From a virus (Duplodnaviria > Caudoviricetes): 26,655 bases of DNA. The notes under the pieces are model-generated. The model saw only the letters and a list, made by a program, of their open reading frames with translations. It had not been told where the DNA came from and searched no databases. Position 1 is the first letter of the stretch; each line of letters opens with the position of its first letter. The stretch spans positions 1 through 26,655 of the IMG/VR virus record IMGVR_UViG_3300032330_001293; one strand, given 5' to 3'. Made by a program: the position numbers and the translations under genes. Shown here one piece after another: positions 1-26,655 of this stretch.

Positions 1-558
1 ACCATCAGCGTTGATCTCAGAGGCAATCAAGTTCAGGCCGTCGTAGTTGGCAATCACAATCTCGTAGTCCTGCTGAATCATCTCTATGCGCCGTGAGGCT
101 TGCGTATGGTGGGCGACGATGGCGGAGCGATGGATAACACTGCGGTTGATGTCACCCATCCATGCGCTGTGCATGATAGACAGCGGACAGAGAATCAGCA
201 CACGACGAACTTCACCACGCTTCATCAAGAAGTCAGCCGCCCACAATGCTGAGAGCGTCTTGCCAGTGCCGGGGTCGTTAAAGCAGAACGCTCTGCGGTG
301 TAATGTGAGGAAAGCCGCTGTCTCTATTTGGTGAGCCATTGGTATAAACTTTCCGGGCCAGTCGTAGCGCCTAGTGATAGGCGACGGCACATCCTTCACA
401 CCAAGGTTGCGTAGCACCCGAGCCTCATCAAGCCCCCAGTACACAGCAACTTCATAGATGCCGTTCTCTTCAGACAACACCTTGTGCTTTGGAATGATCG
501 CGTACTTGTGCGGGTTGCGCGTGCGCAGTACGAGCGCTTTGTCATCAACGATCTGCAT
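1..558 (-). CDS. SNF2-family (SF2) phage helicase, N-terminal part; runs off the window edge
   Basis: Not in the ORF track. Manual translation from ATG at 558: MQIVDDKALVLRTRNPHK...PMAHQIETAAFL...FNDPGTGKT (Q motif, Walker A)...VLILCPLS (motif Ia)...IVIANYD. Open to position 1. Confidence 0.9.
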   Translation of the reverse strand, partial: MQIVDDKALVLRTRNPHKYAIIPKHKVLSEENGIYEVAVYWGLDEARVLRNLGVKDVPSPITRRYDWPGKFIPMAHQIETAAFLTLHRRAFCFNDPGTGKTLSALWAADFLMKRGEVRRVLILCPLSIMHSAWMGDINRSVIHRSAIVAHHTQASRRIEMIQQDYEIVIANYDGLNLIASEINADG

Positions 559-883
559 CTTCTCTTTCCGTCAAAACGTAGTAGTACAGTGTTTCGTCCA
601 TATCCATGCGCGATACTTTTCGCTGTTCAACTAGCGATCTGTTTGCTAACTCTTGCGCTACGTTTGCTTCGCCGCGATCTCCCGCGTTCCACATATCGTC
701 GTGTGTCACCGCCCTTGAACCGAACTGCACCATCCAAAGATCACGCAGTACTTCCGTTGGCGTTTCTATAAGCCCTGTGGGGTTACCTCCGTTTAAGTGT
801 ATTTTCCCAAGCATGTTTCCCCCACGCGGGTCACTCCACCCCATTGCGTATCGCTCAGTAGCTTTGTATTTCATCGTGCTCAT
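545..883 (-). CDS. Small protein, paralog family 1 member A; N-terminus resembles a major-capsid C-terminal motif
   Basis: Overlap-coupled to neighbours. Shares the LxDLWxxxFG core with 880-1224 and 1240-1704. N-terminus is MKYKATERYAMGWSDPRG. Confidence 0.8.
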   Translation of the reverse strand: MSTMKYKATERYAMGWSDPRGGNMLGKIHLNGGNPTGLIETPTEVLRDLWMVQFGSRAVTHDDMWNAGDRGEANVAQELANRSLVEQRKVSRMDMDETLYYYVLTEREDADR

Positions 884-1224
884 GCGCCCTCCTTAAGCCT
901 AGACCATGGCGTTGTGTCTGAGCGATGGTTAAGCTCTTCCATCATTTTGTTTTGGTGCAGTCGTGCGGAAGCATCGCACCAAAAGTCGTCTTCTAACTCT
1001 GACACATCTACCCACGTATCTCCGAAACGTGCACGCCACAGATTGACTAGCTCTGATAAAGGTATTGAGTACACAGGGTCCTTGTTAGGGTTGAACACCG
1101 TCATTATTGTGGGGTCAGGGTCTATGTGCTGAAAATATTTTGCGTATTCAGCAGGGCTCATTCCAAGTTTGGCCGCCAGTGCTATCTGTGACGGGTTCAT
1201 TAATATTTGTTTTACTTTTGCCAT
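880..1224 (-). CDS. Small protein, paralog family 1 member B; N-terminus resembles the scaffold C-terminus
   Basis: AGGAGAAGC RBS. Core LVNLWRARFGDTWVD. Residues 7-28 are 11/22 identical to the C-terminus of 24145-25101. Confidence 0.85.
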   Translation of the reverse strand: MAKVKQILMNPSQIALAAKLGMSPAEYAKYFQHIDPDPTIMTVFNPNKDPVYSIPLSELVNLWRARFGDTWVDVSELEDDFWCDASARLHQNKMMEELNHRSDTTPWSRLKEGA

Positions 1225-1239
1225 TCGCTTCTCCTTGAT

Positions 1240-1704
1240 TTATTCTGGTCTGCGGCACACGTACCGCGCTCGATCTGTTAGATAGTGCGTCTCAAGCTCG
1301 CCCATTTGTTTGAGCCTTCGGTACGCTAGCCTAAAGAAGTTATCGCCTTCAACATCCACTAGGTCAATCCATTCGTTTCCATAACGTGTTACCCAGAGAT
1401 CGATTAGCGAACCGACTGACACGTTGTAGGCTTCATGCTCAAGCTCTTTGCTTGTGGCAGGCGTGTGTGTTTCGCCTGTAATCTTTCCTATCGTGTGTTG
1501 CCCCGCCGCTTGTGAAAGCACATTGTTGTACTGCTGTTGCGCCATGTGTGCGTTTCCAACAGTGGTGTTAGTCCACATAGCTTGCCCCAACTGGTTCAGA
1601 GATTGTTGAGCGGGGCCAATCGCACCTTGCAGACCTGTCGTACCTTGAAGTCCCTGCGCGGCGTTCTGAGCGCCGCTACCGAATAGGTTGTTTAGTAGTG
1701 ACAT
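1240..1704 (-). CDS. Small protein, paralog family 1 member C; Q/G/A-rich N-terminus with a Gly-X-Y stretch
   Basis: TAATG overlap with the upstream gene. Core LIDLWVTRYGNEWID. Confidence 0.85.
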   Translation of the reverse strand: MSLLNNLFGSGAQNAAQGLQGTTGLQGAIGPAQQSLNQLGQAMWTNTTVGNAHMAQQQYNNVLSQAAGQHTIGKITGETHTPATSKELEHEAYNVSVGSLIDLWVTRYGNEWIDLVDVEGDNFFRLAYRRLKQMGELETHYLTDRARYVCRRPE

Positions 1705-1970
1705 TATTTTATTGAGTGGTCTGATTTGCGAGCGTATGAACGGTTCGCACTTGCATCTTTGACGCGCAGGTTTGAGCGCACAGTCTTGCCGCCTTTTGAG
1801 AGCGCTTTCTTGTGGTCAACATCTTTGCCGTCACCCTTGTGCACGAGGCCTTCCTTCTCCATCATGGCGCGTGCTTTGTTACGAGCGGCGCGTTTCTTTT
1901 TCACAGCGGGCGTGCCATCGTACTGCTCGTACTCTTTGGCGTAGGGGCGGGGTTTGTTTACGTAAGGCAT
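1704..1970 (-). CDS. Small HNH-type endonuclease-like protein
   Basis: DVDHKKALSKGG...NLRV...ANRS fits the HNH pattern; basic N-terminus. Confidence 0.75.
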   Translation of the reverse strand: MPYVNKPRPYAKEYEQYDGTPAVKKKRAARNKARAMMEKEGLVHKGDGKDVDHKKALSKGGKTVRSNLRVKDASANRSYARKSDHSIK

Positions 1971-1978
1971 GTTAGTTC

Positions 1979-2293
1979 CTATCTTGCTTGGTTAATTTTG
2001 GACACGGATTTGAGCGCATCTACTACGCGCATCGGTTGGTCTTTGTCCGTCTTGATCTTCATCACGTCATGGGCTAAACGTAACGCCATAACTGTCGCAC
2101 ATTCTGGGTGAAACCACAATGACACGTAGCCCTCAATGTGGTCGTGAAAATTTACCATGCGCGGGTCTTTGCTCTGCGTTAGCACGCCGTGGGCTGAGTG
2201 CTCAATGGCGGGTTGGTCTTCTCTAATATCTCCGTGGCAGATGTGACATTTGCATGGGGTCATCATGAAGTCGTTTGGGTAATGAACAGCCAT
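1979..2293 (-). CDS. Hypothetical Zn-binding protein
   Basis: CHIC...FHPEC (CxxC...HxxC); AGGAG RBS. Confidence 0.7.
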   Translation of the reverse strand: MAVHYPNDFMMTPCKCHICHGDIREDQPAIEHSAHGVLTQSKDPRMVNFHDHIEGYVSLWFHPECATVMALRLAHDVMKIKTDKDQPMRVVDALKSVSKINQAR

Positions 2294-2302
2294 TTGTTTC
2301 TC

Positions 2303-2968
2303 CTAGTGTTTCTTATTAAATTCGCAGGTTTTTACTGGGCACCAACCGCACAGAGGTGTTTGGTTCGGGTTCCACACATCGTTGGCAAAGCTTGCTTCAA
2401 GCCGCGCAGTACGCTCACGGTAGTCCCACCAGTGTTTGTCGATGTCTTCTCGCGCCATGGACATCTTGACCATGTCGTTCTTGACAATGAATAAAAGTGC
2501 AGAGTTAACTTTGCGGATGTGCGGGAAGTGCGCAAACACCATGAGCGACATGAGCACAAGCTGATCTCTGTCTGGGTACTTGTTGTTGCCAGTCTTCCAG
2601 TCGCCCACCCACGCCGTAAGGTTGTCGTCATCAACGACAAGGATGTCAGCAATGCCACGCACCCATACGTCTTTGTCTTTCCAACCAGTTGGCTTGAGGT
2701 CCACAGTCAGCGCCATCTCATACTCTGCAAGCTTGCGCCCATTCTTCTTGAGCATGGCGTCCACCACAGGCTTGAACTGTTCGTACTCGGCAGGTATCGG
2801 TTTGCCGTCCCTGATGTAGAACTCAATAGCTTCATGCACCTGATTGCCGTAGCGCGTTGCCTCAGTCTCAACGAACGGGTAGTTCTTTAAGACCTTGACC
2901 TCTTGGTATCTACGTGCGCATCCCTCGTAGTCTTTGAGGGAGGAGTGTGACCATGCGGGTTGTTTCAT
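2303..2968 (-). CDS. PD-(D/E)XK (Cas4/RecB-like) exonuclease
   Basis: WSHSSL..YEGC, G..VHEAIE, RGIADIL, DWKTG, QL..., and C-terminal CGWCPVKTC cysteine cluster. Confidence 0.9.
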   Translation of the reverse strand: MKQPAWSHSSLKDYEGCARRYQEVKVLKNYPFVETEATRYGNQVHEAIEFYIRDGKPIPAEYEQFKPVVDAMLKKNGRKLAEYEMALTVDLKPTGWKDKDVWVRGIADILVVDDDNLTAWVGDWKTGNNKYPDRDQLVLMSLMVFAHFPHIRKVNSALLFIVKNDMVKMSMAREDIDKHWWDYRERTARLEASFANDVWNPNQTPLCGWCPVKTCEFNKKH

Positions 2969-3171
2969 AAGTTTGGGTATTGGTTGTATTTTGTAAAGGT
3001 GTCAAAGACGTCGTAGATGAGAGGGCGATTTTCGCGCAGATAGACTGCTAACGAACGACCATTCGGGGTGACTATGTAAGCACCGCGTTGCTTTTCCACT
3101 ATCTCCCAACCTGCAATCATCATTGCGTCGAACATGGCCTGCTCTTCAGAGTTTCGCAGAGTTAACGGCAT
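2965..3171 (-). CDS. Small hypothetical protein (start 3171 or 3135)
   Basis: Fills the gap between genes with an ATGA overlap to the exonuclease. The 3324 start in the track overlaps the upstream gene extensively. Confidence 0.55.
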   Translation of the reverse strand: MPLTLRNSEEQAMFDAMMIAGWEIVEKQRGAYIVTPNGRSLAVYLRENRPLIYDVFDTFTKYNQYPNL

Positions 3172-3442
3172 CGCATAACCTATTTGCAAAAGCTGTAACA
3201 AAGCGCTCGTTGGCGCACAGGTCGTGCCCCATGTCGTACAGGATGGCATGCGTAAGCTCATGCCAGAATGTGTCGTCAACCTCTTCTTGCTCAAACGTGT
3301 TGCCGTGATTGTCGAACTTGGCAATCTCGATGCGGTTCTCGTCGAAGTACGTGCGCCCCATGGCGGCGGGGTCTTGTATTGTCTGTGGGCGCGTAATCTC
3401 GTACGTCTTTTTGCCCACGCTGATGCGTCTTGGTATCTGCAT
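3146..3442 (-). CDS. Small HExxH zincin-like metallopeptidase-domain protein
   Basis: GRTYFDENRIEI...DTFWHELTHAIL...NERFV. Confidence 0.75.
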   Translation of the reverse strand: MQIPRRISVGKKTYEITRPQTIQDPAAMGRTYFDENRIEIAKFDNHGNTFEQEEVDDTFWHELTHAILYDMGHDLCANERFVTAFANRLCDAVNSAKL

Positions 3443-3685
3443 TTAATTCTCCTCTACTTTTTCGTACGTCATTTCAAAGATGTCAGGCTTGCACGGGTAG
3501 TGCTCGCCCTTCACGCCTGTGATAATCCAGTCGCCCTCGGTGACTTCGTGCCCACCCTCCAGTGTGTGAATCCATCCTTTGTTTGCGCTTTCGCGGCCTC
3601 TTGGCATGATGGTGACCTTGGGATGGTCGCCATGCTTGAACCATTGTGTGGCCTCAATGACCACAGGTTTCTTTCTATACTTCAT
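3443..3685 (-). CDS. Conserved small phage protein (RKKPVVIEA...YPCKPDIFE family)
   Basis: Recognisable motifs KYRKKPVVIEA, TLEG, GDWIITGVKGE.YPCKPDIFE.TYE; AGGAGAAGC RBS. Confidence 0.85.
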   Translation of the reverse strand: MKYRKKPVVIEATQWFKHGDHPKVTIMPRGRESANKGWIHTLEGGHEVTEGDWIITGVKGEHYPCKPDIFEMTYEKVEEN

Positions 3686-3693
3686 TGCTTCTC

Positions 3694-5661
3694 CTAGTTT
3701 TTTGCTAACCCATAACGACGGTGTGCGCCACCGTCAGCGTCCAATGGAATACCTTGCATGTAGCTTGGCTCCATAGTCATTTGCGCCAAGACCCAAGTCT
3801 TAGCGTCAGCCACTTCATCGTCAGGTACAACAGCAATCAGTTCATCATGCACTGTGCCTGCGATCGGGTACTTCTTTGAGACCCTCAACATACCATCCGT
3901 CATCACAATGCGAGCCAAGGCCTGCGTGATGTTGTTCGTTATCTTCCCTGCATACAACTTGGTAGCGTGTGGCCCATAGACTGCTTGGCTCCTACCTTTG
4001 TCGTCCTTCTCATAGCGAAGATCAGGGTACAACAACTTCATTCCGTTGGGCAATTCAATCTCGCCTTTGCGGAACGTAACGCATTTATACACCAGTTCTT
4101 CACCATTGACAAGCGACCTGTGTAAAGCTGTTTCACAGAGGCTCCAGAACGCTACAACAGGGTACGCTGTTCTCCTATACGTATCTATGATTGCTTTGGA
4201 TGCAAGCGCATGGTGCAGAAGTTCCGGTGTGGTACACGTGTGCGGTATCTCCAACAGCTTCTCTTCGTTGCCTGCCATCTTGACGAACGCGCTCGCATAC
4301 TCTGAGTCAACGCCTAACTTCTTTGCGAAGTCTTTTGAGTATCGCTGAGGCGGTGCACCGAGGAAGCCTACTAACAACTGCGATGCAAACGACGCCCAAC
4401 CGAGGCCGTACCCGCACCCAAGTAATGCAGACTTCGCAGACTGTCGAAGATCTGGGTGAGTTTCTTTGGTGAGGTTCGGGATGTTGAACATCTGAGCGCC
4501 GAAAGCGGCGTAAGGGTCACCACCTGCCCTGAAGATGTTGAGCATGTCTTCGTAATCCGAAAGCCACGCGAGCACTCGCGGTTCAATTTGAGATAAGTCC
4601 CCCACGACCAGTTGGTAACCTTCGGGAGCCATAATCGCTTTGCGTAAGAACGAACCTCGCTTGAGGTTTTGCATGTTAATGGCCGAGCCTTTGGCGGCAG
4701 TCCAACGACCTGTTTGCGCACCATAGTAGGAGAGAGGTACCGGTAAGGCTCCACGTTTACTAATGTCGAGGAATCTCTGAGCCCTTGTGCGCTCGGTGGT
4801 CGATTTAACCTTAAGACGCGCTTGACAAAGTAGGGCAATGTCTTCACGTTCACTGTTGAGCAACGTCTGGAAGAGTGCATCGTTCTTTGCGAGTGCAAGC
4901 GCTGTCTTCCCTGTTGTCTTACTTGTTTTGGTAGGCGGAACAACGCCCAGTTTTGTAAGTAGTTCAGCAAACTTTGGGTTCGATGCCAGCTCAGCCTCTT
5001 CCACGCCGAGCCTCTGTAATAGTTGTTCACGAGCGTTGCCCTCCTCGGCCAGTGCCTTGATTAACATTTGTTGGTCTAACTGCAACAGCGGACGCGTGTA
5101 CATCTTGAGCGTCATGTCGATGAGCCGTAGCTCTTTCGCAGGGTAGCCTGCACGTAGGCGCTTGAAGATCTCTTCACAAAGATACACGTCATGCGCACAA
5201 TACTCGGCAAGTTCTTTCTCTATCTCAGGCGTGAGTTCTTGCAAGCCGTTGGTGTTGTGGACGGCGGCTCCCTTGGGGGGCAGGCCGAAATCCTGCGCCA
5301 GTTTCATCAATGAGTTGCCCACCTCAACACCACGTAGAGCGCGAGCCATGGAGAGAGAATCAAAAATAAAGCATGGATGCCAGTTATACGCCCACTCCAA
5401 TATAGATACATCGAACTGAGCGTTGTGAGCCAGAACAGCAGTAGTAGCAGGGTCGTAGCAACTAAGGATGCGTGGTAACTCGTCGGCTCTGTACCATTGT
5501 GTGCGTTTGTCTGAGCCGTACTCATGGATGCACGCTCCGAAAGCTTTGAATCTTGGGTCACGAATGTACTCCTCGGTTGTCATCTTGGACAGCGTGTACT
5601 CTTTGCTGTCCCATCGTGTTTCAAAATCGACTGTGATGATTTGTTTGAATGGCTTGCTCAT
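3694..5661 (-). CDS. polA: DNA polymerase, family A, with 3'-5' exonuclease domain
   Basis: ExoI VDFET, ExoII HNAQFD, ExoIII YCAHD; TGRW; motif A DLSQIEPR; motif B KSALLGCGYG; motif C TVHDEL. Confidence 0.96.
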   Translation of the reverse strand: MSKPFKQIITVDFETRWDSKEYTLSKMTTEEYIRDPRFKAFGACIHEYGSDKRTQWYRADELPRILSCYDPATTAVLAHNAQFDVSILEWAYNWHPCFIFDSLSMARALRGVEVGNSLMKLAQDFGLPPKGAAVHNTNGLQELTPEIEKELAEYCAHDVYLCEEIFKRLRAGYPAKELRLIDMTLKMYTRPLLQLDQQMLIKALAEEGNAREQLLQRLGVEEAELASNPKFAELLTKLGVVPPTKTSKTTGKTALALAKNDALFQTLLNSEREDIALLCQARLKVKSTTERTRAQRFLDISKRGALPVPLSYYGAQTGRWTAAKGSAINMQNLKRGSFLRKAIMAPEGYQLVVGDLSQIEPRVLAWLSDYEDMLNIFRAGGDPYAAFGAQMFNIPNLTKETHPDLRQSAKSALLGCGYGLGWASFASQLLVGFLGAPPQRYSKDFAKKLGVDSEYASAFVKMAGNEEKLLEIPHTCTTPELLHHALASKAIIDTYRRTAYPVVAFWSLCETALHRSLVNGEELVYKCVTFRKGEIELPNGMKLLYPDLRYEKDDKGRSQAVYGPHATKLYAGKITNNITQALARIVMTDGMLRVSKKYPIAGTVHDELIAVVPDDEVADAKTWVLAQMTMEPSYMQGIPLDADGGAHRRYGLAKN

Positions 5662-5891
5662 TTTTGTTTTCTTTCTCCAAGTACTTTATTACTCCACTCA
5701 ACCTTGTAGATGCCGCCATTCAAGTCAAAGTCAATTCGTAAGTTGCACTCGACAAGGTACGGGTGCAAACCCACACCCAACCCATCCCTGTTCTGACTAA
5801 CTCTGTAATACTTGCTGACACATGTCTTGCCGCGATCTTCTTCAGGAATAATCTGCCTGTACAGTGGTTCAGGTGTTTTTGATTTGCTCAA
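5658..5891 (-). CDS. Hypothetical protein
   Basis: 4-nt overlaps with both neighbours. Confidence 0.7.
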   Translation of the reverse strand: MSKSKTPEPLYRQIIPEEDRGKTCVSKYYRVSQNRDGLGVGLHPYLVECNLRIDFDLNGGIYKVEWSNKVLGERKQK

Positions 5892-6169
5892 TTAAATTGC
5901 TCCTTTGGTGGTGCGTCGAGGAGATTTAAAAAGCCGAAAAAATCGTTTGCCGCCAACATGAGTTGCGACGCCTCCATCTCATCACAATTTAGGGTGACGA
6001 CTCCTGCAAACTCATCCTCTGCGCGGCCAATGATGACAACAGCCTGCGCTTTGCCTTCTCCATAACACATCACCAACTTGTGTATCAGCAACTTGAAGTG
6101 CGCCTGCTCTTCGTCCGACATCGCCTCAACGCGTCGTTCTAATTCTTTCTGCGACATTGACTCGCTCAT
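5888..6169 (-). CDS. Hypothetical protein
   Basis: GGAGG RBS; overlap-coupled. Confidence 0.75.
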   Translation of the reverse strand: MSESMSQKELERRVEAMSDEEQAHFKLLIHKLVMCYGEGKAQAVVIIGRAEDEFAGVVTLNCDEMEASQLMLAANDFFGFLNLLDAPPKEQFN

Positions 6170-6450
6170 GATAAGACCTCCTTTAAAGTGTGTATGTTGT
6201 CCTCGTTGATGACAACTGCCGTCCCCCCTGCGCCACGTATGCGGCTTAGATGGGCTTCTTGTAGAGCGGTGGTTTTACCCTTACCCGCTTTTGCTTCAAT
6301 GCCGACGAACTTACCGCCAGCACACACGAGAAAGTCAGGCACGCCCGAGTTCCCGTATCCTGTCCCGATGGGCATGGCGTAGTACATGCCAAGCTCATCA
6401 AGAATCTTCCTGATCTGTTTCTTCACTTTCACTTCTGGTGTTGAAGCCAT
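6166..6450 (-). CDS. VRR-NUC family nuclease (putative Holliday junction resolvase)
   Basis: TPEVKVK, GVPDFL, GIEAKAG, TALQ motifs. Confidence 0.88.
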   Translation of the reverse strand: MASTPEVKVKKQIRKILDELGMYYAMPIGTGYGNSGVPDFLVCAGGKFVGIEAKAGKGKTTALQEAHLSRIRGAGGTAVVINEDNIHTLKEVLS

Positions 6451-6847
6451 GTTCTATCTCCATCTTTACTATGCTTGTGCCGTAGACCATTGCCGCCTGC
6501 ATCTGGCGTGAGTAGTTGTACGAGTCTACTGAGTGCCCCCACCACGCCTGCGTCTTCGCTTCTATCTGTCCGCAGTGAATGTCCAACTCCTCGCCTGTCA
6601 CCAGTTTAAACCCATCAGGTGTGGCGATCATGACTTCTTCAGTACGAAGCCTGTTGTAGCGATTGGCAAGTATCATGGCCTCGTCACGCTGTTTGTACAG
6701 CTCACCAATACGTTGCTCCATGTACTTGTCTTTATGTTTGTGGTCGGTCAGCTTGTCCTGCAACAGCCGCACCTGATTCTTCAACTCCTCCACAACATCT
6801 TTCTGAGCGAGGCGTTCAAACTTCTTTTGTTTCCATGCTGCCGTCAT
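6398..6847 (-). CDS. Hypothetical protein, paralog family 2 member E (coiled coil + AxRYxxL domain + variable tail)
   Basis: ANRYNRLR...G...T.EELD aligns by eye with 6844-7125; ATGA coupling. Confidence 0.75.
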   Translation of the reverse strand: MTAAWKQKKFERLAQKDVVEELKNQVRLLQDKLTDHKHKDKYMEQRIGELYKQRDEAMILANRYNRLRTEEVMIATPDGFKLVTGEELDIHCGQIEAKTQAWWGHSVDSYNYSRQMQAAMVYGTSIVKMEIEHGFNTRSESEETDQEDS

Positions 6848-7125
6848 TTTCGATTCTCCTTGATTGTCATTGTGAGTTCTTTCTCCAATATCTTTAACGC
6901 GTGCGTTGTGATGCTTGCAGGGGTGAGTAACCCTGTGCGGATTTCCAATGTATCAATGTAGGCGTCGATCTCTTCGTATGTTTCAAAGTGCAAGGCACCT
7001 TTGTTCTTATCCATGATGACGAGTGTGTCGACAAAGTACTTTAACTTGCGGTAACGCATAGCGTCTTTGAACTGTGCTTCGCCTGTGTCTTTGACGTATT
7101 TGTATTCGTGTGTTTGTGTATCCAT
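6844..7125 (-). CDS. Hypothetical protein, paralog family 2 member D (DAxRYRxL domain + coat-like tail)
   Basis: GGAGAAGC RBS; DAMRYRKLK...EEIDAYID resembles the common phage DAERYRWLR...LDAAID motif. Confidence 0.8.
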   Translation of the reverse strand: MDTQTHEYKYVKDTGEAQFKDAMRYRKLKYFVDTLVIMDKNKGALHFETYEEIDAYIDTLEIRTGLLTPASITTHALKILEKELTMTIKENRK

Positions 7126-13476: not shown

Positions 13477-14451
13477 TTAGGTGTGGATATTACTACGGGG
13501 GTATTCAGAATACTTAGGGAATTGTTTCACCTCCTCTGGTTTCTTCATCGAGTTGCTACCAACGTATTTGTGTATCCTGTCAAGGATGGCACGCCTGAAC
13601 TCGGGCATCTCGATGGGCTTGTCCAAGTCGTCGACTGTACTCTCGGGCGCATTGTTTCTATTCCACCATGTGCCTGCTATGTGGAAGCCCGACTGTTCCA
13701 TACCGCGCTTGGATGCGATGATGTCGTAGGCTTTCTGACACATCTCAAAGAACACATCAATGTCCTGTTGTCTTGGCTCGGGGTCAGTCCACATCTCTTG
13801 TATCGCCATGTAATAGGCGCGGTTGAATCCCTCGCCACCGAACTTGACACCAAAGCGCCGATCAATCTTGCACTCAGCCCTGAACTCAGGCATACGCATC
13901 TGTGCAAGCATGATGTAGGGCTCGAAGTGTGCGGCTACTTGTTGCTTGAACTTGCGGACATCGGTGTCCGCGACTAGTCGGTAGTGCGGTGTATGTTGCG
14001 AGCGTGTGGTGTCAAGGTTGCCGTCAACCCAATAAGAATTTAAACTAAACATCACGCCGTCGTCACGCATGAATCCCTTGGTATAGATCGGCATGATCGT
14101 GCGTTCGTCTGCATGCACGCCGTCACTCCACAATGTGTTGGCACCACACTCAACGCGTAGCGTGTGCGACATGAACTGCCTGCTAGTCTGCGAGCCGTGA
14201 CCCATGTACAACCTACGCTCGACGCGCTTGCCGTCCTCTACCTTGGGCTCGTAGAACCGCGCCATGATAGTTTGGTACAGCTTGATGTCGAAGTACTTGC
14301 CGTAATCGTTAACGCCCTCGATGAGTCGGTGATGCGTCACTGGTTTGGGGTCAAGTGGTCGCTCGTTGGGTTGCCACTTGCTACTGCGCACTGGCCCACG
14401 TAATGCAAATGTGCCCAATGCCTCGTCATAGTTTCTGCAAAGATATGCCAT
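13477..14451 (-). CDS. Hypothetical phage protein (324 aa)
   Basis: Long ORF with GGAG RBS. Confidence 0.85.
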   Translation of the reverse strand: MAYLCRNYDEALGTFALRGPVRSSKWQPNERPLDPKPVTHHRLIEGVNDYGKYFDIKLYQTIMARFYEPKVEDGKRVERRLYMGHGSQTSRQFMSHTLRVECGANTLWSDGVHADERTIMPIYTKGFMRDDGVMFSLNSYWVDGNLDTTRSQHTPHYRLVADTDVRKFKQQVAAHFEPYIMLAQMRMPEFRAECKIDRRFGVKFGGEGFNRAYYMAIQEMWTDPEPRQQDIDVFFEMCQKAYDIIASKRGMEQSGFHIAGTWWNRNNAPESTVDDLDKPIEMPEFRRAILDRIHKYVGSNSMKKPEEVKQFPKYSEYPRSNIHT

Positions 14452-21020: not shown

Positions 21021-23516
21021 ATGGCAACGAACATCGACAAAGCGCTGTACCAGCAACCGGTTGGCATTGACGCACTGGCAGAGCAGGAGTCACCCCTTGA
21101 GATCGAGATCGTTGATCCCGAAGAAGTCAATATTGGCATGGATGGCCTAGAACTTTCCATCCGCCCCGGCGAGGACACCGAAGAAGGTTTCAGTGACAAC
21201 TTGGCCGAGTACATAGACGATGGTGCCTTGCAGTCACTCGCTGGTGACCTGATGGCGGACATTGACAACGACAAGGGCTCACGCAAAGAGTGGGAGAAGA
21301 CGTATGTTGATGGGTTGAAGCTGTTGGGTCTCCAAATTGAAGAGCGCACAGAACCGTGGCAAGGCGCATGCGGTGTGTTCCACCCCATGATTACTGAAGC
21401 GGTTGTGCGCTTCCAAGCCGAGACAATCACTGAGACGTTCCCTGCGCAGGGCCCTGTGCGTACAAAAATCTTGGGTAAAGAAACGCCTGAGAACAAAGAG
21501 ATCGCGGTCAATGTCGAGGATGACATGAACTACGAGCTGACCGAGAACATGGTCGAGTACCGGGCGGAGCATGAGCGCATGTTGTGGTCGCTGCCTGCTA
21601 CGGGTTCGGCATTTAAGAAGGTCTACTACGACCCATCGCTTGGACGTCAGGTATCTATGTTCGTGCCCGCAGAAGACATCCTGCTCCCATACGGCGCGAC
21701 AGATCTGGACACTTGCCACCGCGTCACGCACGTCATGCGTAAGACAAAGAACGAGGTCGTCAAGCTTCAGCAAGCGGGGTTCTATCTCGACATCGAGCTG
21801 CCCGATGCGCCCAAGGATCGCACTGACATTCAGAAAGCCAAGGACAAAGAGACAGGCTTCAACGACCTGAACGACGACCGCTACGTCATCTATGAGTGCC
21901 ACGTAGATTTGAACCTCGACGGCTACGAGGACATGACGGAAGACGGTGAAGAGACCGGCATCATGTTGCCGTACGTTGTCACCATCATCAAAGGAACGAA
22001 CGACATCCTGTCGATTCGTCGTAACTGGAAGGAAGACGATGAGCTCAGACTCAAGCGCCAGCACTTCGTGCACTACCAATACATTCCCGGCTTCGGCGCA
22101 TATGGTTTTGGACTCTTCCACCTCATCGGTGGTTTTGCCAAGTCCGCCACTAGCCTTATGCGTCAACTGGTTGACGCAGGAACGTTATCTAACCTTCCCG
22201 GTGGCCTCAAGTCAAGGGGACTCCGTATTAAAGGCGATGACACGCCTATCGCCCCCGGTGAGTGGAGAGACGTCGATGTAGCCTCTGGCAACATCCGCGA
22301 TAGCATCCTGCCTCTGCCTTACAAAGAGCCAAGCGCGACGCTGTTCAACTTGATGCAGACCATCGTTGATGAAGGCCGTCGCTTTGCCGCGACTGCTGAC
22401 ATGAAGGTGTCTGACATGTCTGCGCAGGCTCCTGTGGGAACCACACTGGCTCTCTTGGAGCGCCAGCTCAAGGTGATGACGGCTGTTCAGGCCCGCGTGC
22501 ACTTTGCCTTAAAGCAAGAGTTGAAGTTGCTCAAGGACATCATCCGCGACTACACAGACGAGAACTACACATACGATCCAGAGTACGGCTCACGCAAAGC
22601 GAAGAAGGCTGACTATGACAAGGTGGACGTGATCCCCGTGTCAGATCCCAATGCAGCCACTATGTCTCAGCGCGTGATCCAGTACCAAGCTGTGATTCAG
22701 ATGGCGCAGATGGCTCCGGACATCTACAACTTGCCCGAACTGCACCGCGGTATGTTGAACGTCTTGGGCATCAAGAACGCCGAGAAGCTTGTGCCAATCG
22801 AAGAGGACATGAAGCCGATTGACCCAGTGCAAGAGAACCAGAACGCGCTCAAGGGCACACCGCTCAAAGCCTTCTTGCATCAGGATCACGCCTCGCACAT
22901 CCAAGTGCACATGATGTTGTTGCAGGACCCCATGATCCAGCAGTACATCGGCCAGAACCCACAGGCTCAGAAGATCATTGGTGCCATCACAGCGCACGTG
23001 GCTGAGCACGTCGGCTACCAGATGCGTCAGAAGATTGAGCAGCAACTTGGTATGCCCTTGCCTCCCGAAGATGCGAAGTTGCCACCACAGGTGGAGATTG
23101 CGCTGTCGGGCATGATGGCGCAGGCGGCCAATCAAGTTCTCATGCAGGACCAAGCCAAGGCTGCACAGATGCAGGCACAGCAACAAGCACAAGACCCAGT
23201 CTTGCAGATTCAGATGCAGGAGCTTCAGCTCAAGCAGCAAGAACTGGAGTTGAAGAAACAAAAGATCATGATGGACGCTGCGGCTCAAGCCGACAAGCAG
23301 CAGTTGGAAGAACAGAAGGTAAGCGGACGCTTGGAACTCGACTCACTCAAGGTGGGTGCGCAAATCAAAGAAAGCCAAGCAAAAGCCCAATTCGAACAAG
23401 AACGTGCCGGTGTCCAGATGGGCACTGACATCGCAAAGAGTAAGGCTCAGATGGCCCTGCAAGCGCGAACTGCTGCGCTCCAACATAGCAGCAAACAAGG
23501 CAAACCCACTAAATGA
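21021..23516 (+). CDS. Portal protein with Q-rich C-terminal coiled coil (barrel)
   Basis: Follows TerL; PWQGACGVFHP, GSAFKKVYYD, GFGAYGFGL, QLVDAGTLSNLPGG motifs. Confidence 0.92.
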   Translation: MATNIDKALYQQPVGIDALAEQESPLEIEIVDPEEVNIGMDGLELSIRPGEDTEEGFSDNLAEYIDDGALQSLAGDLMADIDNDKGSRKEWEKTYVDGLKLLGLQIEERTEPWQGACGVFHPMITEAVVRFQAETITETFPAQGPVRTKILGKETPENKEIAVNVEDDMNYELTENMVEYRAEHERMLWSLPATGSAFKKVYYDPSLGRQVSMFVPAEDILLPYGATDLDTCHRVTHVMRKTKNEVVKLQQAGFYLDIELPDAPKDRTDIQKAKDKETGFNDLNDDRYVIYECHVDLNLDGYEDMTEDGEETGIMLPYVVTIIKGTNDILSIRRNWKEDDELRLKRQHFVHYQYIPGFGAYGFGLFHLIGGFAKSATSLMRQLVDAGTLSNLPGGLKSRGLRIKGDDTPIAPGEWRDVDVASGNIRDSILPLPYKEPSATLFNLMQTIVDEGRRFAATADMKVSDMSAQAPVGTTLALLERQLKVMTAVQARVHFALKQELKLLKDIIRDYTDENYTYDPEYGSRKAKKADYDKVDVIPVSDPNAATMSQRVIQYQAVIQMAQMAPDIYNLPELHRGMLNVLGIKNAEKLVPIEEDMKPIDPVQENQNALKGTPLKAFLHQDHASHIQVHMMLLQDPMIQQYIGQNPQAQKIIGAITAHVAEHVGYQMRQKIEQQLGMPLPPEDAKLPPQVEIALSGMMAQAANQVLMQDQAKAAQMQAQQQAQDPVLQIQMQELQLKQQELELKKQKIMMDAAAQADKQQLEEQKVSGRLELDSLKVGAQIKESQAKAQFEQERAGVQMGTDIAKSKAQMALQARTAALQHSSKQGKPTK

Positions 23517-23707
23517 TTCAAGACTTCGCACACGTATTGCGCGACCAAATACGTAAAGACATGAACAACTATGCCGACGACTTGGCTGGTGGTATCTGTC
23601 GTTCCTTTGAGGAATACCAAAAACTCTGCGGTGTTATTTCGGGTCTGGCTCTCGCAGAGCGTTACATCCTTGACCTGCTTGAGAAAGTCGAAAAATCAAA
23701 TGAGTGA
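23513..23707 (+). CDS. Small conserved head-module protein
   Basis: Coupled to the portal; LAGG..SFEEYQKLCGVISGL. Confidence 0.8.
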   Translation: MIQDFAHVLRDQIRKDMNNYADDLAGGICRSFEEYQKLCGVISGLALAERYILDLLEKVEKSNE

Positions 23708-24134
23708 ACTCATTCTGCCACCCGGTATTTCGTTGCCGCCCCATATTCAGCCGCTGGACAAACCAGAAGCCGAAGATGACAACGAGACAAAAGCAGGTGC
23801 ACTGCCCACCCCAACAGGTTGGAAGCTGCTCTGCGTCGTGCCTGAAGTCGAACAAAAGATTGCAGGTACAACACTGGATCTCGTGAGAGATACCGCCACA
23901 CTGCGTCAAGAAGAACACGCCACTACGGTGCTGTTTGTATTGCGCGTAGGCCCTGATGCGTACAAAGACACCGCCAAGTTCCCCAACGGAGCATGGTGTA
24001 AAGAAGGCGACTTCGTGCTTGTCCGCACATACTCCGGCACAAGATTCAAGATCTTTGGCAAGGAGTTCCGTCTCATCAACGATGACCAAGTTGATGCTGT
24101 TGTGCTAGACCCTCGCGGCTTGACCCGCGCTTGA
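23700..24134 (+). CDS. groES: GroES-like co-chaperonin
   Basis: PTGWKLL, VLRVGPDAY, CKEGDFVL...YSGT, FRLINDDQVDAVV; probable start at 23700. Confidence 0.88.
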   Translation: MSELILPPGISLPPHIQPLDKPEAEDDNETKAGALPTPTGWKLLCVVPEVEQKIAGTTLDLVRDTATLRQEEHATTVLFVLRVGPDAYKDTAKFPNGAWCKEGDFVLVRTYSGTRFKIFGKEFRLINDDQVDAVVLDPRGLTRA

Positions 24135-24144
24135 AAGGAAGAAC

Positions 24145-25101
24145 ATGGCTATAAAAGATGAGTTCAAGTTCCCCGACGAAATCGAGGACAAGAACACGCC
24201 CGAGCTTGAGATTGAGATTGAAGGCGAAGGTGAAGTAGACATCGAGATTGAAGACGACACCCCTGAACGTGACAGAGGCCGCAAGCCTTTGGACAAGGAA
24301 GTGGCGGACCCCACAGACGAAGAGATCGAAACTTACTCTGACAAAGTTAAGACGCGTATCAAGGAACTGACGCATGCCCGCCACGACGAGCGACGTGCCA
24401 AAGAAACCACACTTCGTGAAAAACAAGAGCTGGAGCGTCTAGCACAGCAGTTGATTGAGGAGAACAAACGCCTCAAGCAAAACGTTTACACAGGACAAGA
24501 AGCGATCATTGAAGGTGCGAAGTCAAAGGCGGAGGCAGAACTTGCCATGGCCCGTCGCAAACTCAAAGAAGCGCAGGAGTCCTACGATACTGACGCAATC
24601 ATTGCCGCACAAGAAGAGGTGATGGACGCCAAGATCAAAGTTGAACAAACAAAGAATTTTCGGCCTACCCCTTTACAGGAAGAAAATTTTGATGTACAAA
24701 CGCCTCAAGCCCAACCTGCAAAGGTTGAGCCCGACGAAAAGACTCTGCGCTGGCAGGCAAAAAACCAGTGGTTCGGGCAACAAGGGTTTGAGGAATACAC
24801 CAGCTACGCACTAGGGCTGCATCAAAAGCTAGTCACAAACGGAGTGGATCCCCGCTCTGCTGAATACTTCGAGCAAATTGATGCTCGCATGAAGTCAACG
24901 TTTCCTGATTTGTTTGGGCAAACGAATGACAAGCCAAGGTCTGGTGAGGTTCAAAAGAAGCCTACGACAGTGGTTGCCTCTGTCTCGCGTTCTACGAGCG
25001 CAGGAAAGATCAAGTTGACGACTACGCAAGTAGCGTTGGCAAAGAAATTAGGTTTAACCCCGCAGCAATACGCTGCACAAGTAGCAAAACTGGAGAACTG
25101 A
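24145..25101 (+). CDS. Capsid scaffolding protein
   Basis: Acidic N-terminus, long coiled coil, NQWFG, and C-terminal helix-turn-helix QVALAKKLGLTPQQYA; lies upstream of the MCP. Confidence 0.8.
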   Translation: MAIKDEFKFPDEIEDKNTPELEIEIEGEGEVDIEIEDDTPERDRGRKPLDKEVADPTDEEIETYSDKVKTRIKELTHARHDERRAKETTLREKQELERLAQQLIEENKRLKQNVYTGQEAIIEGAKSKAEAELAMARRKLKEAQESYDTDAIIAAQEEVMDAKIKVEQTKNFRPTPLQEENFDVQTPQAQPAKVEPDEKTLRWQAKNQWFGQQGFEEYTSYALGLHQKLVTNGVDPRSAEYFEQIDARMKSTFPDLFGQTNDKPRSGEVQKKPTTVVASVSRSTSAGKIKLTTTQVALAKKLGLTPQQYAAQVAKLEN

Positions 25102-26211: not shown

Positions 26212-26655
26212 ATGGCAATTTCACGCGCACAACTACTTAAAGAGTTGCTCCCCGGCCTGAACGCTTTGTTCGGTATGGAATACGCCCGTTACGGCGAAGA
26301 GCACAAAGAAATCTACGAAACAGAGAAATCTGAGCGTAGCTTCGAAGAAGAAACAAAGCTGGCTGGCTTTGGTTCTGCTCCAGTCAAGAACGAGGGCCAA
26401 GCCATTGCTTATGACAATGCGCAGGAAGCCTTCACAGCACGTTACAACCACGAGACTATCGCCCTCGGTTTCTCCATCACGGAAGAAGCTGTGGAAGATA
26501 ACTTGTACGACAGCTTGTCTGCTCGTTACACGAAATCTTTGGCCCGTGCTATGGCTTACACCAAGCAAGTTAAAGCCGCTTCCGTTATCAACAACGGTTT
26601 CAACGGTTCATACTTGGGTGGTGACGGCGTTACTTTGTTCGGTAACAACAGCTCC
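26212..26655 (+). CDS. Major capsid protein, N-terminal 148 aa; runs off the window edge
   Basis: Not in the track. AAGGAG RBS; MAISRAQLLKELLPGLNALFGMEY...SERSFEEE...K.EG..I.YD...ARYNHETIALGFSITEEAVEDNLY. Confidence 0.93.
   Translation, partial: MAISRAQLLKELLPGLNALFGMEYARYGEEHKEIYETEKSERSFEEETKLAGFGSAPVKNEGQAIAYDNAQEAFTARYNHETIALGFSITEEAVEDNLYDSLSARYTKSLARAMAYTKQVKAASVINNGFNGSYLGGDGVTLFGNNSS

Follow-up and report, generated by a model that had tools for sequence, protein, structure and literature searches.

Small replication-arm genes of an uncultured phage carry peptides of virion-assembly proteins, mostly of foreign type, and may interfere with head assembly of other phages

Introduction

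Why would a phage keep, among its replication genes, small genes whose ends resemble pieces of proteins that build the virion? This question is raised by IMG/VR record IMGVR_UViG_3300032330_001293, a stretch of 26,655 bases from an uncultured phage of the HTVC023P/Pag-Yong1-like type, which was analysed as the complete record and is referred to here as the window. Five small open reading frames (ORFs) were found where the original prediction had placed them, all on the minus strand, and we name them A1 (545-883), A2 (880-1224), A3 (1240-1704), B1 (6398-6847) and B2 (6844-7125). They had been described as two tandem families in which a shared carrier domain bears a variable end, several of these ends resembling structural proteins. 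We show here that four of them carry conserved peptides of 15-25 residues matching a major capsid protein (MCP), a scaffold, a portal and a coat protein, respectively, and that three of these four peptides (A1, B1 and B2) are foreign in type rather than the phage's own.

Results

Three genes carry head-protein peptides of foreign type

The gene B2 encodes 93 residues and joins a family B carrier (6946-7071) to a tail, of which residues 66-87 (6865-6930, minus strand) copy the N-terminal helix of the PF11651 (P22-like) coat protein of another phage group, with 13 of 22 positions identical to the coat of L208. A resemblance of one variable end to a P22-type coat N-terminus had been predicted from a family consensus, and it is the B2 tail that bears it out. 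A ten-position pattern made from five B2 tails matched an estimated 5,500 IMG/VR stretches; of the 120 of these that were inspected, 119 are coat N-termini, five confirmed as PF11651 and the others by visible similarity, and one is a B2 orthologue. Agreement between the consensus tails and the coats extends to columns that the search pattern did not include, and the coat motif is kept in 83 of 87 B2 homologues. This coat family is not used by the phage of the window, whose own MCP, cut by the window end after its N-terminal 148 residues (26212-26655, plus strand), has close relatives of the PF25209 type, not PF11651. Among 152 small genes of five P22-like genomes, none carried reciprocal peptides or carriers (0/152).

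A1 encodes 112 residues, with a carrier domain at 560-793 (minus strand). Its residues 3-21 (821-877, minus strand) copy the C-terminal motif of an HK97-fold MCP of the KcrB type. When the first 26 residues of A1 were searched against 50,697 GenBank phage records, there were 12 matches and all lay at an MCP C-terminus, confirming the suspected likeness of one end to this motif. Five of the 12 are annotated as capsid or head, and KcrB gp086c was verified as the MCP; three are the same genes that the phage's own MCP matched as a query, and the identity of three from other Caulobacter phages was inferred from their coordinates. The peptide matches its profile at 21.9 bits, whereas the controls gave no match of at least 10 bits. 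Moreover, it is identical to the end of the KcrB MCP at 15 of 19 positions, as against 12 of 19 for the own-type MCP of L010, and the own-clade residues R..R..L, present in each of 73 own-clade MCP ends (R-Y-K-x-R...D-[PA]-L), occur in none of 19 A1-type peptides. The peptide is present in 12 of 22 A1 variants. A strict DNA pattern returned only two loci, both of them small mimic genes and neither an MCP. The same MCP C-terminal peptide was also seen on a third, unrelated carrier (L379:1189-1680) in a 63.7-kb phage contig.

B1 (149 residues) consists of a predicted coiled-coil N-terminal part, a family B carrier (6563-6676) and a variable tail, in which residues 112-132 (6452-6514, minus strand) copy a portal helix and the motif YGTSIVK of a foreign type. 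Here the likeness is stronger than the original prediction had judged. The pattern of the B1 tail returned 39 loci, comprising 26 portals, one transposase, two other small phage genes, two very short frames and eight non-coding frames; one position of this pattern had been widened from S to S/G/R to follow a consensus, and exact S occurs in seven of the 26 portals. The matching portals belong to the phrog_1216/332/156 group, and the tail differs from the apparent equivalent motif of the phage's own portal, SLPATGSAFKK (21588-21620, plus strand; equivalence judged by eye). The same site is occupied by several alleles in 30 B1 orthologues: 13 are portal, 11 are MCP spine-helix, four are chimeras of half spine and half portal, and two are other sequences. 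The portal motif was also seen in small genes of other phage contigs (L360:1860-2141 and L361:1799-2170), and a neighbouring gene in the second of these (L361:772-1461) has a Q-rich stretch with a GWTDPR core.

The B1 and B2 tails gave no tblastn match to GenBank phages at E 10, and a B2 tail used as query against longer proteins gave none either, while the motif scans succeeded; short-fragment scans of the Pfam and PHROG type missed the A1, B1 and B2 peptides.

A2 carries a scaffold peptide of own-clade type

The remaining peptide is the only one of the four that belongs to the phage's own clade. A2 (114 residues) carries at residues 5-31 (1132-1212, minus strand) a copy of the C-terminal helix-turn-helix of a scaffold, with 10 of 22 residues and 8 of 22 codon third positions identical to the phage's own gene (24145-25101, plus strand; C-terminal motif at 25006-25074). 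We infer that this gene is a scaffold, since it sits between the genes for GroES and the MCP and since one A2 N-terminal end matches the C-terminal part of PF10123. The alignment, which the original prediction had recognised, scores 61, a value reached in none of 300 shuffles. An A2 orthologue matches Pfam Mu-like_Pro at positions 305-330 (E 0.02), and the best three GenBank matches of the A2 N-terminal end lie shortly upstream of MCP genes, which is the position of a scaffold, the other three being weak (E 9). Among 39 A2 variants, 19 carry the peptide.

Small genes match head proteins more often than chance

Variable ends match structural proteins more often than shuffled sequences do, which upholds the idea of a carrier with a head peptide. 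When 48 core-family profiles were compared with 651 early accessory genes, 27 matches of at least 10 bits to head profiles were found, with none in the reversed and none in the shuffled set; these 27 are not independent, as they come from four gene families. Tail profiles gave no match to the same genes. The 19 matches to replication profiles comprise 17 ordinary orthologues or fragments and two borderline cases, tail and replication profiles being longer than head profiles. After foreign coat and portal profiles were added, 33 of 652 early accessory genes matched head profiles, compared with three in 23 local shuffles; the added profiles were built from motif-retrieved proteins, and these scores are thus partly circular. 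For family A, 136 variable ends from the best 150 of 403 clusters were compared, and 22 match head profiles at 10 bits or more, against 0, 0, 1 and 1 in four controls. The matches fall on the MCP C-terminus (17), the N-arm (2), the E-loop region (1), the spine-helix region (1) and the scaffold (1), the names of the MCP segments following the HK97 fold. The C-terminal motif persists in 17 family A clusters at the 50% identity level. Segments that match MCP or portal profiles span only 15-30 residues.

The ends are swappable among carriers, with MCP segments, the scaffold tail and tail-fibre motifs all found on family A. Tail-fibre PHROGs are matched through the N-terminal ends of two of the 129 family A representatives scanned. 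In a tree of the carriers (FastTree, about 70 columns, no root test) the peptide classes are scattered, the tree being too weak to count origins, and in contigs of relatives A1 or both B genes can be missing, or A2 can be without its peptide.

Several individual genes add to this picture. The ends of P0205 and P0263 that match tail-fibre PHROGs resemble tail-fibre repeats, and P0140 and P0258 have the same resemblance by eye. The N-terminal end of P0195 resembles a minor head protein (E 0.038), and that of P0234 appears to combine in one extension a start that by eye is like an MCP N-arm and the MCP C-terminal motif (27.9 bits). Two stand-alone early genes have carriers unrelated to either family: one of 60 residues (L126:491-673) matches MCP positions 163-199 (Pfam Mu-like_gpT, E 0.059), and one of 72 residues (L192:9508-9726) matches a scaffold tail. 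The window lacks a third family B gene that was seen at L001:5243-5494 and L003:4853-5107. The start of this gene matches MCP columns ~52-69, strongly in L001, where the match covers 56-69, and more weakly in L003.

One carrier family is well supported and the other is plausible

Of the two tandem paralog families that had been proposed, family A stands. A2 and A3 align with a score of 83 (0/300 shuffles) and A1 and A2 with a score of 48 (0-2/300 shuffles), and a single profile retrieves 100 non-identical members from related loci, with a conserved A3-A2-A1 array between the HNH and helicase genes. The family comprises 403 clusters at 50% identity, including carrier-only versions such as that of L127 (72 residues). 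Family B, in contrast, is plausible rather than proven as a true paralog family, since the pairwise score of B1 and B2 (40) is reached in 5-14 of 300 shuffles and their joint profile was seeded with both genes; the two share the pattern RY..L...I...G...EExD.

Whole-protein scans of Pfam and PHROG named none of the five genes, nor did the PADLOC 2023 scan, which gave only a weak LmuB match on the N-terminal part of B1. The A2 carrier (886-1095, minus strand; about 70 residues) was modelled by AlphaFold at a pLDDT of 83 in the order helix-strand-helix-helix-hairpin, and its weak similarity leads are eS10 (E 0.39) and DsrD and Mnd1 (scores 0.80-0.81), all of them winged-helix domains. The predicted order of elements, together with these leads, suggests a putative winged-helix-like fold for the family A carrier. 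No cultured phage matched the carrier of A3.

The genes are tightly packed. Starts overlap stops at A2/A1 and B2/B1, the start of the VRR-NUC gene overlaps the last 17 codons of B1, and the A3 start sits at the HNH stop. Purine-rich ribosome-binding sites (RBSs) precede A2, A1, B2 and B1, and GGAGA is used by A2, B2, B1 and VRR-NUC. In B1, A2 and B2 the final codons (6450-6475, 883-900 and 6847-6870, respectively) double as the RBS of the next gene, and the residues that they encode are not to be taken for mimicry.

Resemblances that did not hold

A3 (154 residues) has a Q/G/A/N-rich variable N-terminal part (1453-1704) followed by its carrier (1243-1452), and no head-protein match was shown for it. 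Its Gly-X-Y run (1609-1653), which had been noticed at the outset, has five Gly at period 3 (shuffle P 0.002-0.005). However, 40 of 47 close A3 orthologues have a run of only three, and a conserved collagen-like repeat was rejected in favour of a local run of five. An ejection or tail protein was likewise rejected as the source of the A3 N-terminal part, the resemblance being one of composition only, in which controls score equally. The N-terminal extension of A3 in L004:4624-4935, in many A3 orthologues and in P0056-P0120 is read from another frame of the HNH gene that lies upstream and may reflect either a gene-calling artefact or overprinting. The weaker resemblance to motifs of the large terminase subunit (TerL) also failed, as none of the five genes matched an own-clade profile or five other TerL sequences.

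The resemblances are old and lie at the protein level

The pooled ratio of nonsynonymous to synonymous substitution rates (dN/dS) is 0.17 (A1), 0.28 (A2) and 0.54 (B2) in the peptides and 0.21, 0.09 and 0.18 in the respective carrier cores; these values are biased low, because only pairs with the motif were selected, and the pairs are not independent of one another. Column conservation of the peptide tracks that of the structural protein with rho 0.56 for A2 and 0.45 for B2, the latter partly circular. Codon third positions of the peptides agree with those of the structural genes at between 3/22 and 11/19 sites. Third positions are thus saturated, indicating old resemblances at the protein level, and recent copying of DNA, and with it a role as DNA or CRISPR decoys, was rejected. 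In A2, dS is higher in the peptide (1.55) than in the carrier (0.85), which points to repeated replacement.

Genome context

The minus-strand arm of the window contains helicase, HNH, exonuclease, DNA polymerase, VRR-NUC, glutaredoxin and AAA/VWA-type genes. The other arm, on the plus strand, encodes the small terminase subunit (TerS), TerL, portal, GroES, the scaffold-slot gene and the start of the MCP, which is 75% identical to that of Pag-Yong1 and 65% to that of HTVC023P. The co-chaperonin gene (GroES-like, phrog_3188; 23571-24134) lies between portal and scaffold, a feature conserved in KcrB and Pag-Yong1. A Pag-Yong1 gene annotated as anti-CRISPR AcrVA2 (L008:5454-6494) lies near VWA/ATPase genes, and the window ORF at 13477-14451 may be its counterpart. 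The MCP patterns occur in an estimated ~18,000 stretches of IMG/VR. Matches in GTDB were five contigs of metagenome-assembled genomes from five unrelated taxa. Runs labelled RNA contained no more than small shares of the search words and consist of contigs, and they do not bear on expression. In two portal frames of other contigs (L362:2-2500 and L377:1533-4031), a block at about residues 506-796 matches PHROGs of the large terminase subunit and is possibly an intein-like insertion.

Discussion

We tentatively favour, ahead of each alternative considered below although at less than even confidence, the explanation that the products of the four small carrier-peptide genes are competitive inhibitors, which would block head assembly by other phages sharing the cell. 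Judging from their position, the genes would be made early, before or without the late genes. The carrier, which is probably winged-helix-like, would stabilise and present the peptide, and the peptide would then occupy the partner site of the real protein in a co-infecting phage or an induced resident one, such a site being the contact of the coat N-arm with the scaffold tail, a contact between subunits or a contact of the portal. One PF11651-coat record (G028) is classed as a provirus, which makes resident prophages possible targets. Peptides of foreign type would spare the phage's own assembly, and recombination at the junction of carrier and peptide would reshuffle the targets. With slightly more reserve still, we propose that these loci could be a recombining armoury for peptide display, in which early carriers present interface peptides from the capsid, scaffold or portal of other families as dominant-negative weapons and junction recombination changes the target.

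The mostly foreign types of the peptides favour interference with other phages, and the copied pieces cover both halves of the coat-scaffold interface, which supports inhibition. There is also a precedent for competition at this interface. As PMC5644958 describes for phage 80alpha, the coat N-arm is the binding site of the scaffold tail, and CpmB, a protein of a satellite, competes for this site by means of a homologous 16-residue motif. CpmB of SaPI1 is, like A2, a small protein with a motif homologous to a scaffold C-terminus, although its own motif is C-terminal whereas that of A2 sits N-terminally. CpmB also differs in being a dimeric scaffold of a satellite that builds small capsids (PMC5644958). 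Unlike that satellite, the phage of the window encodes its own TerL, portal, scaffold-slot gene and MCP, and unlike CpmB, the genes described here present a wide set of peptides, most of them originating in other groups of phages, on carriers that can be exchanged; the set spans four MCP segments, the coat N-arm, scaffold, portal and fibre motifs.

Blocking the assembly of a rival is itself a known strategy, as portions of the report on Tab describe (PMC10884400). Tab and Tai (PMC11364771) are phage-encoded proteins of prophages or phage-inducible chromosomal islands that block the assembly of an invader, which is the outcome proposed here, but they target tails and, in the passages concerned, are not described as copies of virion peptides. 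PADLOC, Pfam and PHROG scans gave no convincing match to known defences, no search having been aimed at Tab or Tai. Full-text literature searches, with most subscription journals and all supplements outside their scope, found no description of such genes.

Several observations weigh against competitive inhibition. The A2 peptide is of the own-clade scaffold type and could poison the phage itself, and so could the own-clade MCP N-arm carried by the family A members P0155 and P0163. The peptide is lacking in 10 of 22 A1 and 20 of 39 A2 variants, many members are decayed, and four of 30 B1 orthologues are half-spine, half-portal chimeras; an intact mimic is thus dispensable. The downward bias of the dN/dS values counts on the same side. 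In addition, the C-terminal strand and the spine helix of an MCP are presumably largely buried in the folded subunit, as expected of the HK97 fold.

The explanation that comes close behind, which we regard as somewhat less likely still, is that the peptides are immune decoys. Ahead of the late proteins, they would occupy sensors of the host, or of a prophage or satellite, that recognise conserved pieces of virion proteins in nascent or monomeric form, and a decoy of foreign type would bind the sensor without disturbing the phage's own assembly. The copied pieces are indeed conserved capsid, scaffold and portal motifs, with tail-fibre motifs in relatives, and all four protein types are among the triggers of defence systems reported in PMC13728456. 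Host defence would act in every infection and would therefore select strongly. Excerpts of PMC9712102 describe how the short capsid peptide Gol of T4 can activate Lit, so that a major-capsid segment is recognised alone by a host-side factor; Gol, however, is an internal segment of the genuine capsid protein and sets off defence, and these excerpts describe no copy on a stand-alone carrier. Avs/STAND receptors (PMC13581612) and CapRel (PMC9712102), as far as these partial sources go, sense the protein classes copied here and would be putative targets rather than relatives.

Nevertheless, the same partial text of PMC13581612 reports that SeAvs7 envelops the folded MCP over 3,700 Å2 and depends on its overall shape, and that recognition by Avs7 needs the A-domain, P-domain and E-loop surfaces of a folded HK97 domain, which a 20-residue peptide does not have. 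The mini-proteins, matching over 15-30 residues only, do not present the folded domain that Avs reads, and this weakens the decoy explanation where Avs is concerned. A bound peptide could equally trigger the sensor, and the natural decoys would be own-type peptides, yet three of the four are foreign.

Neutral capture and cargo tags fit less well. In the former, which we consider improbable, recombination would drop late-gene pieces of other phages onto tolerant ends of small genes, where only conserved motifs would stay recognisable and would persist as translation starts or packing helices. Frequent loss and decay, the chimeric B1 tails, the A3 N-terminal parts from an alternative HNH frame and the repeated replacement of the A2 peptide, with its dS of 1.55 against 0.85, are what such capture would leave behind. 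However, it would not account for short matches that are restricted to head proteins (27 head and 0 tail, with 17 of 19 replication matches being ordinary orthologues or fragments), for an MCP C-terminal motif shared by 17 clusters or for dN/dS below 1. A role as docking tag, by which the carrier would enter or attach to the prohead of its own phage as cargo or assembly helper, is very improbable, because the own-clade scaffold tail of A2, a motif type that binds coat in 80alpha according to PMC5644958, is all that it explains, whereas the foreign types of A1, B1 and B2 argue against it for three of the four genes, and the genes lie in the replication arm on the strand opposite the head genes and are often absent.

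For competitive inhibition, a candidate target of A1 is at hand in the cultured Caulobacter phage KcrB, whose MCP end matches the peptide so closely. If true, natural selection would have singled out, through these peptides, those short segments of HK97-fold head proteins and portals that can be blocked in trans. If these small proteins are indeed competitive binders, they would represent an undescribed layer of conflict in which an abundant group of phages acts against rivals or against immunity that senses capsids.

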